From the IMG/VR virus record IMGVR_UViG_3300029944_000021, positions 1 through 44,436 of that record: a stretch of DNA of 44,436 bases; one strand, 5' to 3'. The translations under genes and the position numbers were made by a program. The notes under the pieces were generated by a model. That model did not search any database. It was not told the origin of the DNA and saw only the letters and a list, made by a program, of their open reading frames with translations. Shown here piece after piece: positions 21,957-44,436 of the stretch. Origin of the DNA: a virus. The stretch's first letter is position 1. Each line of letters starts with the position of its first letter.

Positions 21957-22684
21957 TATATTCTCCCTTGTGCAAAGCTGCTTCCGTTCATGAGCTTAGT
22001 TACGAGTGCGGCATTCCATGCGTTTTCGATGCTGCGCGCCTTGTCCTGTATCCACTTTGAAGAACGCGCCGATGCTGATAGCTTAGCATCCTGATATACA
22101 TCCTCGACCGTCTTAGCGTACTCGGTTTCTTCATTTTCCTTGGTCTCGTCCATCGACATAAGTTTGGCCTTAAGTGATATATCCCGCGTTGCCTTGATGA
22201 TTGGCACCATCATATCGATGATCTGCGTGGATAGCGGGAAGGCATGCAAGCGAAGAATAGGAGCACCTTGCGGCGTCTTTTCGAACCACTTGGCACGGAG
22301 CGGTAGAGCGATCTGGTAGCTACCGCGGTACGGATAGCCGCCAAGCAGCGACAGTCCAGTCTTCGGGCAGCGGTTGGCCTCGTACCATGCACCATCTCCC
22401 TCAGGGTGCAGCGTAGGCATCTGGATTGACTTTCCGGCGTCTGCCCATTGCAGCAGCATCCAGTGAGGCAAGCCATCGCCCAGCAGCACATCGCGGTATC
22501 CGGTGTACCATTCTGCGTCAGCTTCCCACTGGCCGCCTTGCCGTGTGGTCTCGGTCTGAGCCCATGCAAGGCGGAAGTGAGGTTGGCCGTAGCGGTTTAG
22601 TCCACCCATGCGCGTCAATCTGTCCTGGAAGTGTTGAGGGCATTTCAGCCGCTCCACATGCCTAAGAACTGTGTTGGACAGCAT
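21956..22684 (-). CDS. Hypothetical protein
   Basis: The track ORF starts at 22747. The ATG at 22684 (MLSNTVL...) shortens the overlap with the upstream gene. Confidence 0.5.
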   Translation of the reverse strand: MLSNTVLRHVERLKCPQHFQDRLTRMGGLNRYGQPHFRLAWAQTETTRQGGQWEADAEWYTGYRDVLLGDGLPHWMLLQWADAGKSIQMPTLHPEGDGAWYEANRCPKTGLSLLGGYPYRGSYQIALPLRAKWFEKTPQGAPILRLHAFPLSTQIIDMMVPIIKATRDISLKAKLMSMDETKENEETEYAKTVEDVYQDAKLSASARSSKWIQDKARSIENAWNAALVTKLMNGSSFAQGRI

Positions 22685-23099
22685 ACGATACCCTCTGGCG
22701 CAGGTGGATGTCATGCTTGCTGACGTGGACGAACTGCTCGCCGTCAAGGGTAATCTCTTCAGCCGAATAGCGATTGAAGATCACCAGGTCATTCGGGGCA
22801 CAGTCTTTTTCGGCATCAACTTCCGGGCCAATGGCGATGACTATTCCAGCGTTGGGGTTCTTCTGCGCCACGTCGGGGATGACGAAGGTAGTGCCAGCGT
22901 AGACCGTTTCTGCGGCGTGCTGCTTGATTAGCACGCGGTCATTGAGAGGCTTTGGATCGTCGTAGACCTTCGGCGCCTCGGCGAGAAACTTGGATACTTC
23001 GGCGTCGGTTACGGCTACGCATTCCGCAACCTCTGGAGTCTCGGTACGCTCACCTTCAGCGGTGAACTTGCGTCTATCGTTAATTTCCAACTCGGGCAT
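22662..23099 (-). CDS. GroES/Cpn10-like co-chaperonin with a roughly 45-aa N-terminal extension
   Basis: PLNDRVLIK ... GIVIAIGPE ... NDLVIFNRYSAEEITLDGEQFVHVSKHDI follows the GroES pattern. The ATG at 23099 avoids overlap with the Endonuclease VII gene. Confidence 0.65.
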   Translation of the reverse strand: MPELEINDRRKFTAEGERTETPEVAECVAVTDAEVSKFLAEAPKVYDDPKPLNDRVLIKQHAAETVYAGTTFVIPDVAQKNPNAGIVIAIGPEVDAEKDCAPNDLVIFNRYSAEEITLDGEQFVHVSKHDIHLRQRVSYAVQHSS

Positions 23100-23122
23100 G
23101 TTTTCTCTCTCTGGTGAGGAAT

Positions 23123-23623
23123 TTATTTGTAACGCTCTAAGTATGCCACAGCGCGAGTAGCCCATGCTCGATCTTTATCCATCTTGTGAATCGAATGGTT
23201 ACAGATCATGCAAAGCAGACCGCGAGCCTTACCAGTTTCGTGATTATGGTCGATGGCAAATCTTGCCCTTTTTCCGGATTGGTGGTTGTGGCTACCTTCG
23301 GCTAGACAGATAGCGCAAACTCCATTCTGCTCGGATAGCTTGTTGTCGTACCACTCAGGAGATTCTCCAAACCGTCGAAGAACTCTTTCCCTGTCTAGTA
23401 GAAGGTGCTTAGCAGGATTTTCCTTTCTATCATCCTTGCGCCACCCCTTGCGGTATGCATTCATCTTGTCTTTGTTTTTCTGATAATACCGGTCATTAGA
23501 CGCGGTCATGCAAGGCTTGCAATAGGACTGAAATCCATCAAAATTGCGTCTATTATGGTGGAACCCAGTTTCTAGCGGCTTCACCTCGTTGCACTTTGGG
23601 CATTTCTTTTGCTTTGATTCCAT
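23123..23623 (-). CDS. Endonuclease VII-type (HNH-superfamily) nuclease
   Basis: CAICL ... RFAIDHNHETGKARGLLCMICNHSI is the Endonuclease_7 signature. N-terminal CPKC...CKPC zinc ribbon. Confidence 0.8.
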   Translation of the reverse strand: MESKQKKCPKCNEVKPLETGFHHNRRNFDGFQSYCKPCMTASNDRYYQKNKDKMNAYRKGWRKDDRKENPAKHLLLDRERVLRRFGESPEWYDNKLSEQNGVCAICLAEGSHNHQSGKRARFAIDHNHETGKARGLLCMICNHSIHKMDKDRAWATRAVAYLERYK

Positions 23624-26536: not shown

Positions 26537-26558
26537 CTCTGGTTCCTCCTGAAATTAC

Positions 26559-26682
26559 TTTGCTGCGACGTGCCATCTACATCCCAACTTATGCCGGGAG
26601 CTAAGGAAGATGGGAGGCAATTCCCATCCGGGCACCAATTCCCGGTTACGCTGGCCTTAACCAGTTCTTCCGTCGCAGCAAA
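26559..26682 (-). other. 124-nt multi-hairpin intergenic element closed by a 12-bp stem
   Basis: tttgctgcgacg (26559-70) is the exact reverse complement of cgtcgcagcaaa (26671-82). Inner hairpins: gatggga/tcccatc (26609-15, 26622-28), ccggg/cccgg (26628-32, 26641-45) and ctgg/ccag (26651-54, 26661-64). Confidence 0.5.
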
Positions 26683-26683
26683 C

Positions 26684-27301
26684 CTATGATCCGCCAAACT
26701 GTGCAGGCTCTGCATCTCCAAACACAGGTTCAGCGCGATGCAACTTTCCATCCCAATATACCGCAAGTACGCCGCCAGGCTTCACCATATCCGTATCTTC
26801 GGGCTCGCCGCGGAACTCTGCGTCGGTGAAATTCTGCAATGCGGCCACATTCGAGGTGTGGCACACGTACAGCGTTAGCGGCTGGTCGCCTTTGCCTAGC
26901 GATGCAGCGAAGAATGCGAACTGCCGATCCTCGAAGGCGTTCAGGCTCTCGCCGTCTGGTATGCAAACGTCACGCGACGCCACGAACAGCTTTAGCGCAG
27001 GCTGATTGTCTTTCTTACTTCGACCGGAGAACACGCCAAGCCGCCAGGGAAACAATCCACGATGCTGATTGACATGCAACTTGTGAGGCTTTGCGGCTAT
27101 GTCGGCAGTAACGAATGCACGCAGCAACGGCGAGCACATGACGCGCTTGATCGGAAACTTAGACAGGAATCGAGCAGCCTCTTCCGCCTGCTTTATGCCG
27201 CCATCGGACAGAGGTATATCAAGCCATGAACGGTAGCATCCGGTCTCGTTCAAAATAGTGTCGCCATGACGAAGAATCAGGGCGACAAGTTTCTCTTTCA
27301 T
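26684..27301 (-). CDS. Histidine phosphatase (phosphoglycerate-mutase-like superfamily)
   Basis: LILRHGDT (RHG motif), DIPLSDGGIKQAEEAARFL, CSPLLRAFVTADI, PDGESLNAFEDR and LYVCHTSN follow the His_Phos_1 pattern. Confidence 0.75.
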   Translation of the reverse strand: MKEKLVALILRHGDTILNETGCYRSWLDIPLSDGGIKQAEEAARFLSKFPIKRVMCSPLLRAFVTADIAAKPHKLHVNQHRGLFPWRLGVFSGRSKKDNQPALKLFVASRDVCIPDGESLNAFEDRQFAFFAASLGKGDQPLTLYVCHTSNVAALQNFTDAEFRGEPEDTDMVKPGGVLAVYWDGKLHRAEPVFGDAEPAQFGGS

Positions 27302-34602: not shown

Positions 34603-34773
34603 CTAGCGCTTCCTTTTTGCGTCTAGCTCTGCGAATTTCTCCTTGCTCATACCTTTGGTGCTCGTGGAAGATAGAAGATAAATCACTCCGATGCAGAGAG
34701 CTACGGGAAGCAAATATGCAAGGCTTACAAGTATAGATAAGCTATTGACCATAACCGTAATGATAGCGTACAT
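34603..34773 (-). CDS. Small membrane protein (uncertain)
   Basis: The track ORF starts at a TTG (34788); an ATG is at 34773. Hydrophobic N-terminal half. Overlaps a + strand promoter candidate. Confidence 0.3.
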   Translation of the reverse strand: MYAIITVMVNSLSILVSLAYLLPVALCIGVIYLLSSTSTKGMSKEKFAELDAKRKR

Positions 34774-34774
34774 T
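34742..34774 (+). promoter_or_regulatory. Promoter candidate P1 (near-leaderless for the ATG at 34781)
   Basis: CTATTGACC, 18 nt, then TACATT, with the ATG 6 nt further on. Shares the CTATTGAC...AACSGTAATG pattern with 34931..34963. Confidence 0.35.
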
Positions 34775-34780
34775 GACGTA

Positions 34781-34930
34781 ATGGACAAAGAAATAATTAG
34801 TCAGGCAATGCGCTGGGTTCGATCTCAAGCAAAGAAAGCTCCGCGCCCTAAAGTGATGCGTCCTTGCTCAAACTGCGGAAAATCATTTGGAGCAAGAGAG
34901 TTACGGGCTCACAAAACTAATTGCAAATAA
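34781..34930 (+). CDS. Small zinc-finger-like protein
   Basis: 49 aa from the ATG at 34781 (the track ORF starts upstream at 34691). CSNCGKSFGARELRAHKTNC. Confidence 0.4.
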   Translation: MDKEIISQAMRWVRSQAKKAPRPKVMRPCSNCGKSFGARELRAHKTNCK

Positions 34931-34963
34931 CTATTGACACGCAACGGTAATGTGCATTAGTAT
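34931..34963 (+). promoter_or_regulatory. Promoter candidate P2
   Basis: CTATTGACA, 18 nt, then TAGTAT, followed by a 25-nt leader with GGAGA before the ATG at 34989. Confidence 0.35.
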
Positions 34964-34988
34964 TGGTCTTGTTAGAGGAGATACGTAG

Positions 34989-35195
34989 ATGATCAGACTT
35001 ATCGACAGTAGGACGTTTGAACAGTTTGAAACCGATGCGCTAAACCATGCTTCGCAGGTGTCAATCAAACACGCAGATGGTTACTATTTCCGCTTGGGAT
35101 CGGCTAATTACGACAACTCGTTTTGCGCCGGTAGCTATGCTAGGCTTGCGGCGAGCGCGGCATTCAAGCTCCACCCAGAACTTAGAATCCACTAA
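34989..35195 (+). CDS. Hypothetical protein
   Basis: 68-aa ORF with a GGAG Shine-Dalgarno sequence. Confidence 0.45.
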   Translation: MIRLIDSRTFEQFETDALNHASQVSIKHADGYYFRLGSANYDNSFCAGSYARLAASAAFKLHPELRIH

Positions 35196-35246
35196 CCCAC
35201 GCGGACTCCAGAGCGCAGCATTGCTCGATCTCCGCTGATGTATGAC

Positions 35247-35382
35247 GATTGCAGTGCTTTAGCGGAATCGGGATGGTGTAAAACCGGTACTTAACCCCAT
35301 GCTGAAGCTGGGCTCTAGGCTCGATTTGCTGACGTGCGACATGGGTCGTGCCGAAGACGAAAGAGCACTGCAATGGCTATAT
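35247..35382 (+). ncRNA. Candidate structured RNA element, copy A (unassigned family)
   Basis: Colinear with 43446..43583. Has invariant blocks, a 13-bp terminal helix and compensatory substitutions including G.U pairs that only work on the + strand. Confidence 0.55.
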
Positions 35383-35400
35383 ATAAATGAAAGGAATCTA

Positions 35401-35559
35401 ATGCGATACCTACCAGAGTTCGTGCCCTACGCAGGCCAGCTTGAGCATGTAACTGAGGTCGTAAACCAGCTCCAGTGCGCCGGCGACACCGGCGATCAGG
35501 TGCTCATCTACCTGGCTCGTAAGTATAGGCTCAATGTTCCGCTACCGGAGGTGAAATGA
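35401..35559 (+). CDS. Hypothetical protein
   Basis: 52 aa from the ATG at 35401 (AAAGGAA upstream). The track ORF start at 35299 lies inside the RNA element. Confidence 0.45.
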   Translation: MRYLPEFVPYAGQLEHVTEVVNQLQCAGDTGDQVLIYLARKYRLNVPLPEVK

Positions 35560-35747
35560 TGTTTGATCCGGAAAAGGTTGAGCGGTTCAACGTTTTATGG
35601 AATGGAGATGTCATACCGGATGATGTTCCGCACCTAGAAGTTGTTTATGCCAAAGACTTCGACGAACTTGTCAAGGAATACGGACTCGTGTGCGAGCTAC
35701 TGCGCATAACACAGAGTTATGTTGACAACAACCCACCAAAACCATGA
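35556..35747 (+). CDS. Hypothetical protein
   Basis: 63-aa ORF with an ATGA overlap to the upstream ORF. Confidence 0.5.
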   Translation: MMFDPEKVERFNVLWNGDVIPDDVPHLEVVYAKDFDELVKEYGLVCELLRITQSYVDNNPPKP

Positions 35748-35760
35748 ATCGAGGCCACAA

Positions 35761-35853
35761 ATGCACCTGTTATTCTTGCCCGACTATATCGCCGTCTTGG
35801 TTATGATGGTGATCTTCCTGCGAAACGCTTTCTCAAGCAAAACAGACATTTAG
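35761..35853 (+). CDS. Possible 30-aa membrane peptide
   Basis: Hand translation MHLLFLPDYIAVLVMMVIFLRNAFSSKTDI. GAGG lies 6 nt upstream. Confidence 0.25.
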   Translation: MHLLFLPDYIAVLVMMVIFLRNAFSSKTDI

Positions 35854-42361: not shown

Positions 42362-42628
42362 ATGGACTCTAGAACAATAACTGCTACTGAAATGATCGAC
42401 GATCTAGGATTACGCAATCGGGCGTACCAGGTGCTCTATGCGCTAGGCGATACGGCTGCAACAGTTCGCACGCTGACTTCAGGTGAAGCGGCCTGTCTTG
42501 TGGGCATCGTAGGCGATTTATTGGACGAACGCGCGCACCCCTTGTTGCAGTGGACAGAACTGGACGAATTGCTGTACCACCGCATGTCACCGCGAATGAT
42601 TCAATATGTTGCCGAAGGTGGAATATGA
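42362..42628 (+). CDS. Hypothetical protein
   Basis: 88-aa ORF, the first sizeable rightward gene. Confidence 0.45.
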   Translation: MDSRTITATEMIDDLGLRNRAYQVLYALGDTAATVRTLTSGEAACLVGIVGDLLDERAHPLLQWTELDELLYHRMSPRMIQYVAEGGI

Positions 42629-42732
42629 TCTGCATCCACTGCAACCAACCAATCAAGGATGAGCCGGTAAGAACGGTTATCGGGCCGGTTCATCTCAAGT
42701 GTGCGGATTACAAGAAAGGCAATACTAAATGA
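42625..42732 (+). CDS. Small zinc-ribbon-like protein (35 aa)
   Basis: The ATG at 42625 overlaps the upstream stop (ATGA). CIHCNQ...HLKCADY. Confidence 0.35.
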   Translation: MICIHCNQPIKDEPVRTVIGPVHLKCADYKKGNTK

Positions 42733-43098: not shown

Positions 43099-43313
43099 GC
43101 CACGCGCATATCTTCGCTCTGGCGGTAGTTGTATGGGTAGTCCTTACCATGCTGGTAGTCGTGTTCCTCTACGCCTGCGACAAGACAAGCAAGGGCGCCG
43201 ACGAAGCAGATATGACCGCCAGAACGAAGGACGATAGCGAGTACGAGAAGTACGCCAGGAAATATAACGAGTTCGACCATGCTAAGGAGGAGTCGAGATG
43301 GCGAGATCGGTAA
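43095..43313 (+). CDS. Single-pass membrane protein
   Basis: 72 aa from the ATG at 43095 (ATGA overlap). IFALAVVVWVVLTMLVVVFLY followed by a charged tail. Confidence 0.45.
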   Translation: MSHAHIFALAVVVWVVLTMLVVVFLYACDKTSKGADEADMTARTKDDSEYEKYARKYNEFDHAKEESRWRDR

Positions 43314-43447
43314 TGACTCAGGCGATCAATATCGCGCACGACCAGCAGCGGCCTTTTTGCTTGATTTCTAGGTGCGCTGGATTTTGGTTCGTGATTCCTA
43401 ACTACGTAGATAGGTTGGAAGAGATAGATTACTTAAGCGTGGAGTGA
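43298..43447 (+). CDS. Small hypothetical protein (49 aa)
   Basis: AAGGAGG lies 7 nt upstream of the ATG at 43298. Its stop overlaps the first bases of RNA element copy B. Confidence 0.35.
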   Translation: MARSVMTQAINIAHDQQRPFCLISRCAGFWFVIPNYVDRLEEIDYLSVE

Positions 43448-43583
43448 TTGCAGTGCTTTAGCGGAGTTGAGTTAGCGTAATTTACCGAGCCTCTACCCCA
43501 TGCTGGAGACGGTTGCTAGATTCGATTCGCTGACGGTTGGCATGGGCTGATCCGAAGACGAAAGAGCACTGCAATGGCTATAT
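43446..43583 (+). ncRNA. Candidate structured RNA element, copy B (unassigned family)
   Basis: Colinear with 35247..35382, with the same invariant blocks and helices. Ends 30 nt before the ATG at 43614. Confidence 0.55.
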
Positions 43584-43613
43584 GAAGAGATAAACGCATT
43601 AGAGGTGGAGTTA

Positions 43614-44243: not shown

Positions 44244-44336
44244 ATGTTTACTACAAAATTTCTTGTATTTTATCTAGTGGCCTGTTGGATAAGCCGAAAG
44301 AATATTCAATTTTGGGATAGATACTACTCAAAGTGA
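44244..44336 (+). CDS. Possible 30-aa peptide spanning into the terminal repeat
   Basis: AGGAGA lies 8 nt upstream. MFTTKFLVFYLVACWISRKNIQFWDRYYSK. Its stop overlaps the GTG of the Cys-rich ORF (position 24 copy). Confidence 0.25.
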   Translation: MFTTKFLVFYLVACWISRKNIQFWDRYYSK

Positions 44337-44436
44337 ACCGCTCAGAGGGGATGGAGAAAAATACGATGACGAAATCTAACGCAGAGGGAGCCGAACAAGC
44401 AGCCAGGGATAAGGATAACGACCTTAGAATTGCAGA
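44310..44436. repeat. Second copy of the 127-bp terminal overlap (identical to 1..127)
   Basis: Identical by direct comparison. Confidence 0.95.

Follow-up and report, generated by a model that had tools for sequence, protein, structure and literature searches.

Genome and gene layout

The window, by which we mean the whole 44,436-nt stretch of IMG/VR record IMGVR_UViG_3300029944_000021, holds a phage genome of about 44.3 kb that is complete and either circular or terminally redundant. It begins and ends in an exact 127-nt direct repeat (positions 1 to 127 equal 44310 to 44436), and contigs L002 and L004 span the junction between the two ends uninterrupted. Because these independent contigs read through the repeat junction, we treat the window as a complete circular or circularly permuted genome. 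Most genes lie on the minus strand, including those for replication and recombination (Erf, a YqaJ exonuclease, an SF2 helicase, a methyltransferase, and a primase-like protein), for packaging, and for the structural proteins. The plus strand carries islands of short ORFs, many of them with CxxC motifs, at 34691-35853 and from 42362 to the genome end; these small-gene operons are probably early. No tRNA or tmRNA gene was found in the genome. Within the small membrane-protein ORF upstream of ORF49 lies a separate inverted repeat (43112-43126 and 43215-43229), whose 15-nt arms are 93% complementary and 88 nt apart.

Homologues of the Erf protein that are 50 to 80% identical occur on many 40- to 50-kb contigs from soil and peat metagenomes (L028-L050), and the phage is part of a sizeable clade that is largely without annotation. 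Pfam and PHROG searches returned nothing for most of the structural proteins (e.g., those of 1412, 951, 819, and 414 aa), and BLAST of the window region, copy A, and element E (see below) against the INPHARED phages gave zero matches; near relatives are lacking there and, as far as this region is concerned, in IMG/VR. Among the structural genes we noted coding regions for a Cpn10/GroES-like protein, an endonuclease VII, and a histidine-phosphatase-family protein (22662-23165, 23123-23623, and 26684-27301). The host is probably a member of the Acidobacteriota, since element E sits in an Edaphobacter prophage, which is the one basis for this assignment.

Two copies of an intergenic element with inverted arms

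Two full copies of the element, A (35247-35382) and B (43446-43583), are present in the window (Table 1). Their alignment is colinear and in the same orientation, 107 of its 138 columns are identical, and all four identical blocks reported in the initial annotation of this DNA are there. Both copies are intergenic within the plus strand islands, A about 0.55 kb and B about 1.1 kb into its island, with two to five ORFs preceding them, and the 8-kb replication/recombination module between them is on the minus strand. Each ends 18 to 30 nt upstream of the next SD and ATG (ATG at 35401 and 43614), at the distances first described. The 5' extension of copy B, GUGGAGU, overlaps the 3' end of ORF49.

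Table 1. Coordinates of the element copies, related sites, and adjacent linker in the window
Feature	Position	Strand	Remarks
Site T	26549..26685	-	Stem UUUGCUGCGACG/CGUCGCAGCAAA; upstream of 414-aa structural gene
Copy A including extended closing stem	35238..35384	+	Predicted fold -55.5 kcal/mol, z -4.3; closing stem pairs 35238-35260 with 35362-35384
Copy A 5' arm core AUUGCAGUGCUUU	35248..35260	+	Partner 35362-35374
Copy A interior	35261..35361	+	Two hairpins and junction CCGAAGACGAA
Copy A 3' arm core AGAGCACUGCAAU	35362..35374	+	Partner 35248-35260
Site C	42544..42645	+	11-bp inverted arms GTTGCAGTGGA/TCCACTGCAAC; GCCGAAG precedes 3' arm
Copy B including extended closing stem	43438..43584	+	16 Watson-Crick and 4 G.U pairs; closing stem pairs 43438-43459 with 43563-43584
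Copy B 5' arm core	43447..43459	+	
Copy B 3' arm core	43563..43575	+	
RBS linker GAAGAGATAAACGCATTAGAGGTGGAGTTA before ORF92	43584..43613	+	Begins at element end

The four identical blocks had been taken together as a sign of nonneutral conservation. A permutation test upheld this for the terminal blocks (32 nt and 20 nt), which are longer than expected by chance (P value about 5 × 10−5), and not for the inner ones (11 nt and 6 nt), which are at chance level (P value = 0.15 for a run of at least 11 nt in the interior) and are absent from the two relatives, D and E, described below. The interiors of A and B are 71% identical (z = 8).

Neither copy holds a conserved reading frame, as stops occur in every frame of A and B. 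D and E each have an open frame that starts from a TTG of the 5' arm; we rejected a coding role, as the resulting peptides are unrelated, the frame of the 3' arm varies, and A and B have stops.

Closing helix and predicted fold

Folding predicted an identical 13-bp closing stem in A and B. The 13-bp inverted repeat noted at the outset is therefore correct as a stem and incomplete in extent: pairing continues into the flanks to about 21 to 22 bp, interrupted once, next to the core, by a G.G mismatch. In the two copies, different 5' flanks, GUAUGAC in A and the GUGGAGU of B, pair with the conserved 3' tail, GGCUAUAU. The closing helix of A comprises 18 Watson-Crick pairs, 3 G.U pairs, 1 A.C, and the G.G mismatch; that of D has 17 Watson-Crick and 4 G.U pairs, and that of E has 24 perfect pairs. 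The G.G mismatch lies near the middle of the helix in A, B, and D. Across the helices of these three elements, the non-Watson-Crick cells amount to 11 G.U versus 1 A.C, in a register set by the core and not by the folding program. In addition, the sense strand folds better than the reverse strand in A, B, D, and E. Because G.U pairs form on the sense strand only, their excess, together with the better sense folding, points to pairing of the arms within the sense transcript.

Inside the closing stem, RNAalifold on A and B placed two hairpin domains. All 14 variable pairs are kept between the copies, 4 of them by double changes, although this covariation comes from two paralogues only and its shuffle control was weak (45/500); the slide control was biased, the structure having been derived from those very sequences. 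Column shuffling of the A/B consensus gave z = -5.1 for the whole element and z = -3.1 for the interior (2 of 500 shuffles as good), compared with z = -0.9 for the interior on the reverse strand. As single sequences, neither of the two interiors exceeded its dinucleotide shuffles in stability (A, z = -0.4; B, z = -1.2), and the interior of D was less stable than 200 of 200 shuffles (z = +2.3). Since the interiors alone are no more stable than their shuffles, the thermodynamic signal comes mainly from the closing helix. The original proposal of a novel structured RNA is borne out to the extent that a sense-strand-only fold is preserved by the substitutions between A and B, and it finds no support where functions of the interior are concerned. 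No sigma-70 promoter or intrinsic terminator was found inside the element, and the downstream SD lies outside the fold and is not sequestered.

Relatives with fixed arms and swapped interiors

Following the 88-aa ORF of contig L005 led us to a third element, D, in a sister phage (L027). The first 100 nt or so of L027 are 81% identical to ORF49 of the window, and D and B therefore occupy orthologous positions. The arms of D, GTGATTGCAGTGCTTC...GGAGCACTGCAATGGCTTCATGA, show the 13-bp core, the G.G mismatch, and a 7-bp extension, and its interior is 46% identical to that of B versus 48% after shuffling (z = -0.7). The fourth element, E, was the one convincing match in a scan for the arm pair, at a spacing of 90 to 120 nt, across 185,579 GTDB representative genomes. 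It lies in an Edaphobacter chromosome (L019), in the early region of a prophage with DnaB-like and RusA-like genes and two methyltransferases, and is intergenic between small zinc-ribbon ORFs with an SD about 20 nt after its end. Its interior is unrelated to those of A and B, and the E locus and the window have no detectable protein in common. Two other hits were set aside: the arm-pair match in L018 is probably due to chance, and in L017 (4025-4172) the arm pattern matched a long, perfect palindrome with which a Bacillota MAG contig ends, an apparent assembly artefact that has no relation to the element.

The arms GATTGCAGTGCT (35247-35258 in copy A) and GAGCACTGCAAT.GC do not vary among the four elements, which are always intergenic and oriented as their flanking genes. 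The centre-to-centre distance between the arms in the four members is about 115, 117, 95, and 102 bp, with no helical phasing, on which ground we rejected DNA looping. The arms are identical while the flank is 81% identical and the interior is at the random level, which indicates that it is the arms that carry the constraint. The best reading of this pattern is that the functional part of the element consists of the conserved inverted arms and that the interior is a largely replaceable spacer. The family has not been described before, although its general kind is known, and its unusual feature is strict arm conservation combined with freely swapped interiors.

Distribution and element-free homologues

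Look-ups by exact protein match yielded many contigs from the same phage population, a good number of which break off within the repeat, and because every copy on them is identical to A or to B, the recovered copies show no population variation. Strict multiblock scans returned only the same phage from metagenomes (L002) and nothing from genomes, and pattern scans of IMG/VR for the 3' block, the core blocks, the arm pair (gaps of 60 to 150 nt), and the 3' arm consensus gave zero hits. Among the Erf-anchored relatives (about 190 kb on many 40- to 50-kb contigs), we found neither members of the family nor analogous long-stem elements; since these related phages manage without any, the element is not a general solution for the clade.

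The genes next to the element also occur without it. In L001, whose helicase is 85% identical, the homologue of the ORF downstream of A is present at 86% identity and has no element before it. Contig L005 is 100% identical to the window over 650 nt starting from 43583, the last base of B, and upstream of the equivalent of that position it has the unrelated 88-aa ORF and no element. The element is thus dispensable, in that homologues of ORF52 and ORF92 occur without it.

Two further sites in the window resemble the element in part. The 8-mer core TTGCAGTG/CACTGCAA occurs 8 times versus 2 expected, and six of these occurrences form three inverted pairs. Site C has the same core 8-mer as the element arms and overlaps coding sequence (the last part of an 88-aa ORF and the first part of a 35-aa zinc-ribbon ORF); its stem does not extend, and its fold is not significant. 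Site C may be a degenerate, decayed, or domesticated relative. Site T scores 25.5 bits with the A/B model R1 and is an intergenic fold of about 125 nt with a 12- to 13-bp core that starts UUUGC, a G.G mismatch just outside that core, and an end that lies about 10 nt upstream of the SD for the 414-aa structural gene. A 98%-identical relative (L051, IMGVR_UViG_3300031964_000262) keeps the site nearly unchanged, the changes falling in loops, and a 58% relative (L052) lacks it. Site T is analogous to A and B and possibly a further member.

A gene slot between RBS linkers

Copy B is followed directly by a conserved RBS linker, GAAGAGATAAACGCATTAGAGGTGGAGT, which we found in the window (43584-43613), three times in L027 (385-412, 527-556, and 756-786), and once in L005 (297-325), where it follows the unrelated 88-aa ORF. 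In L027, this linker of about 28 nt (GAAGAGATAAACG...AGGTGGAGT) flanks D on both sides, and the third copy stands before the next gene. The layouts read ORF49, B, linker, ORF92 in the window; ORF88, linker, ORF92 in L005; and the ORF49 homologue, ORF88, linker, D, a variant linker, small ORF, linker, methyltransferase in L027. From these layouts we conclude that, between linkers, the element stands where a gene would. What appears as a mosaic junction at its edge is the start of the linker, which marks the exact break in homology, and the linker recurs before different genes, marking the breakpoints of replacements between closely related phages.

PeSL are short conserved intergenic motifs at the borders of indels and replacements that promote modular shuffling by homologous recombination (PMC2839356, PMC4122927). 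In our phages, it is the adjacent linker, and not the element itself, that lies at such borders. The linker resembles the PeSL cassettes of T4-type phages in acting as a shuffling motif. It differs in being an SD-containing spacer, whereas PeSL combine a promoter with a terminator stem-loop, and in that the palindrome-ended element is a separate unit in the gene slot between linkers. The linker is a concrete case, beyond the T4 group, of short intergenic homologies driving the shuffling of gene slots.

Comparison with known RNA and DNA families

The initial annotation had not been able to place the element in a known RNA family, in agreement with our Rfam scans (gathering threshold and E value) of the window, L027, L019, and L051: nothing reached gathering, and the best E values, 0.33 to 0.86, are noise. 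The specific RNA functions it had offered fared less well. A riboswitch or cis-acting leader finds no support, given the lack of conservation of the interiors, those of D and E being unrelated, the absence of a terminator or SD sequestration, and the element-free homologues of ORF52 and ORF92 in L001 and L005. A put-type antiterminator like that of HK022 would be a two-stem-loop RNA placed close behind the early promoters and conserved over its whole length, whereas the copies lie 0.55 and 1.1 kb into their islands and are conserved in the arms alone. As for a ribozyme, the CUGA and GAAA strings fail as a hammerhead, whose CUGANGA...GAAA core frames a three-way junction with an NUH cleavage site: CUGACG(U/G) lacks A9 of that core, the register of stem I is unpaired, and no model matched at E ≤ 10; here, too, the unrelated interiors of D and E stand against the idea. 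On present evidence, then, the element is not a new riboswitch or ribozyme class.

Other identities were tried and rejected. We found no reverse transcriptase to go with a retron-like msr/msd arrangement (a1/a2 arms with UUAGCG), and D and E do not keep the AGC context. For the TR/VR pair of a DGR, the substitutions are not adenine specific, and there is again no RT. An antisense payload had only chance-level matches of 12 to 13 nt. The CCCAUG/CAUGGG motifs, considered for a kissing-loop or pRNA-like role, are invariant between A and B only and are absent from D and E. Finally, a search for a partner protein in Pfam, PHROGs, and PADLOC gave nothing recognizable.

A candidate RNase III-type processing or stability site

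We tentatively propose, with a probability of roughly 0.4, that the element acts in polycistronic early mRNA as a module for processing of the RNase III type or for stability, and that it is exchanged by recombination. In the sense transcript, the arms and their flanks would pair into a helix of 21 to 24 bp closing an interior of about 85 to 105 nt. An idealized E. coli RNase III substrate is 22 bp long, mismatches at the target site lead to single-strand cleavage, and the recognition boxes of the enzyme are degenerate (PMC3867540). The helices predicted for A, B, D, and E have this two-turn length, which is that of canonical bacterial substrates of RNase III, and those of A, B, and D have the G.G mismatch near the middle. 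Acting on the mRNA as a site of processing or stability, the element would uncouple neighbouring cistrons and release or protect RNA ends. The interior would serve largely as a replaceable spacer, with two hairpins kept in A and B, and the whole, sitting in a gene slot between RBS linkers, could be gained, lost, and exchanged among phages by recombination. That the element is transcribed, that RNase III makes staggered cuts in it, and that expression is affected is inferred, and for transcription and cleavage the one indirect support is that the element has the orientation of its flanking genes. A processing site was among the options named at the outset and is now the best supported of them.

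We favour this module on account of the constraint on the arms, the wobble bias, the size of the helix, and the precedent of the Correia repeats. Speaking against RNase III, the near-perfect conservation of the arm sequence across otherwise unrelated phages exceeds what the enzyme is known to need, and it could instead reflect a sequence-specific protein or a role at the DNA level.

In mRNA, the inverted repeats of Correia elements fold into hairpins that are bound and cleaved by RNase III, and the elements occur also in prophage regions (PMC2649163); strains vary in whether they carry a given Correia or ERIC-type repeat (PMC2649163; PMC2229807). The phage element resembles the Correia (CREE or nemis, Neisseria) and ERIC-type repeats in being non-coding, about 100 to 155 bp long, and bounded by conserved inverted termini, and it is like Correia repeats in its intergenic location within transcription units and its patchy presence. 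CREE, however, have a conserved core, whereas the interior of the phage element is not conserved; they have a TA (or CA) target site, whereas the phage element has no TSD; and they number about 100 to 250 chromosomal copies, compared with one to three per phage and no chromosomal family found in hosts at the 90- to 120-nt spacing scanned.

Phages offer a second parallel to an RNase III-type module. The R sites of the T7 group are sense-oriented, intergenic, paralogous structured sites in polycistronic phage transcripts, and they are simple irregular hairpins of about 60 nt. Like these sites and like rRNA processing stems, the element has a predicted helix of about two turns, interrupted by a mismatch or loop close to the known or presumed point of cleavage (PMC3867540). 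Unlike T7 R sites, its predicted stem of about 22 bp closes an interior of 85 to 105 nt, which brings it closer to the stems that flank rRNA. If the arms are an RNA-processing signal, the element would be a compact, portable separator of cistrons in phages that belong to a little-studied phylum of the soil (probably Acidobacteriota). It would, besides, give a clear natural case of a constant helix around freely exchanged sequence and could aid operon engineering in such hosts.

Alternative explanations

The foremost alternative, which we regard as possible but unlikely, is that the element is a MITE-like or selfish palindromic DNA element whose arms are TIRs for a transposase or recombinase of host or phage, with RNA folding as a by-product. 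MITEs are defined as non-coding elements of 50 to 800 bp with TIRs of at least 10 to 15 bp and a TSD, and they make up 0.01% of viral sequences, so that they are known, though rare, in viral genomes (PMC11602168). At 120 to 150 bp, with no coding capacity and with inverted termini of 11 to 24 bp that are conserved while the interior varies (perfect cores of 11 to 13 bp, 24 bp in E), the phage element is like these vMITEs in size, non-coding nature, TIR length, and viral rarity. The several copies in one genome (A, B, and perhaps C and T), its patchiness among close relatives, and its presence in an unrelated Edaphobacter prophage would fit as well. It is unlike vMITEs in that we found no consistent TSD of 2 to 10 bp at A, B, D, E, C, or T, only 3- to 4-mers at chance level whose boundaries do not agree from one site to the next, and no link to a transposase: no transposase or integrase was detected in the phage. 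The earlier suggestion of a MITE-like insertion fails on the missing TSD. Moreover, because only one real match emerged from the 185,579 representative genomes at the 90- to 120-nt spacing, there is no sign of amplification in hosts, and because the flanks in L001 and L005 differ, neither provides a clean empty site. Sense-biased G.U wobble is not expected under a constraint on DNA only and is foreign to the MITE concept. B and D, furthermore, share a locus and differ inside, which points to exchange and not to insertion.

Rather less probable is that the element is a site in duplex DNA, with the arms as inverted half-sites for a sequence-specific protein (a regulator, a recombinase, or a replication or packaging protein) or as handles for module exchange mediated by Erf and the exonuclease. 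It is the sequence of the arms, and not pairing alone, that is conserved; interiors have been exchanged at one locus; a mosaic junction and a repeated linker adjoin the element; the phage encodes both Erf and a YqaJ exonuclease; and PeSL cassettes are a precedent for intergenic motifs that mediate shuffling (PMC4122927). Yet the spacing of the arms varies without phase, the element has no promoter-like match, no candidate partner protein is common to the window and L019, the linker and not the arms explains the L005 junction, and the wobble asymmetry favours pairing of a single strand. For the related suggestion that A and B are recombination sites bracketing the replication module, we found no support.

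We likewise consider it improbable, slightly more so than a duplex-DNA site, that the interior is the active part of an RNA, be it a ribozyme, a riboswitch or cis-acting leader, an antiterminator of the put type, or a trans-acting sRNA payload that processing would free from a conserved scaffold stem. Its appeal lies in the two-hairpin fold common to A and B through 14 variable pairs and in the long basal stem, which resembles stems flanking excised RNAs such as the rRNA processing stems (PMC6582327). The interiors of D and E are unrelated to those of A and B, however, and that of D is unstructured. A, B, D, E, and T all went unmatched in Rfam, the inner blocks shared by A and B are at chance level, and an expression platform is lacking. 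The downstream genes, moreover, occur in relatives that have no element, and antisense searches yielded no meaningful targets. One version of the payload idea, to which we assign a similarly low likelihood, keeps the arms central: they would be a sequence-specific scaffold for a dedicated nuclease or binding factor, beyond generic RNase III, and interchangeable payload RNAs of about 85 to 105 nt would be excised from between them. The payloads of A and B would then be of one type, with two hairpins, and those of D and E of others, and phages would possess a cassette system for processed small RNAs in which payloads are swapped and the scaffold stays fixed.

A functionless remnant of a neutral duplication with patchy gene conversion would suit the confinement of A and B to one phage population, in which recovered copies are identical to one or the other, but it is very improbable given the terminal-block conservation, the arms that are identical in D (flank, 81%) and in the unrelated prophage E, and the substitutions that preserve pairing.

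Consequences for annotation

Public gene calls include an 86-aa "protein" at 35299-35559 whose first 34 residues are translated copy A. The true start of the ORF behind this call is most likely 35401, since the L001 homologue begins MRYLPEF. Several metagenome contigs terminate within the element repeat. For annotation, the element is thus a source of both assembly breaks and spurious ORF calls.
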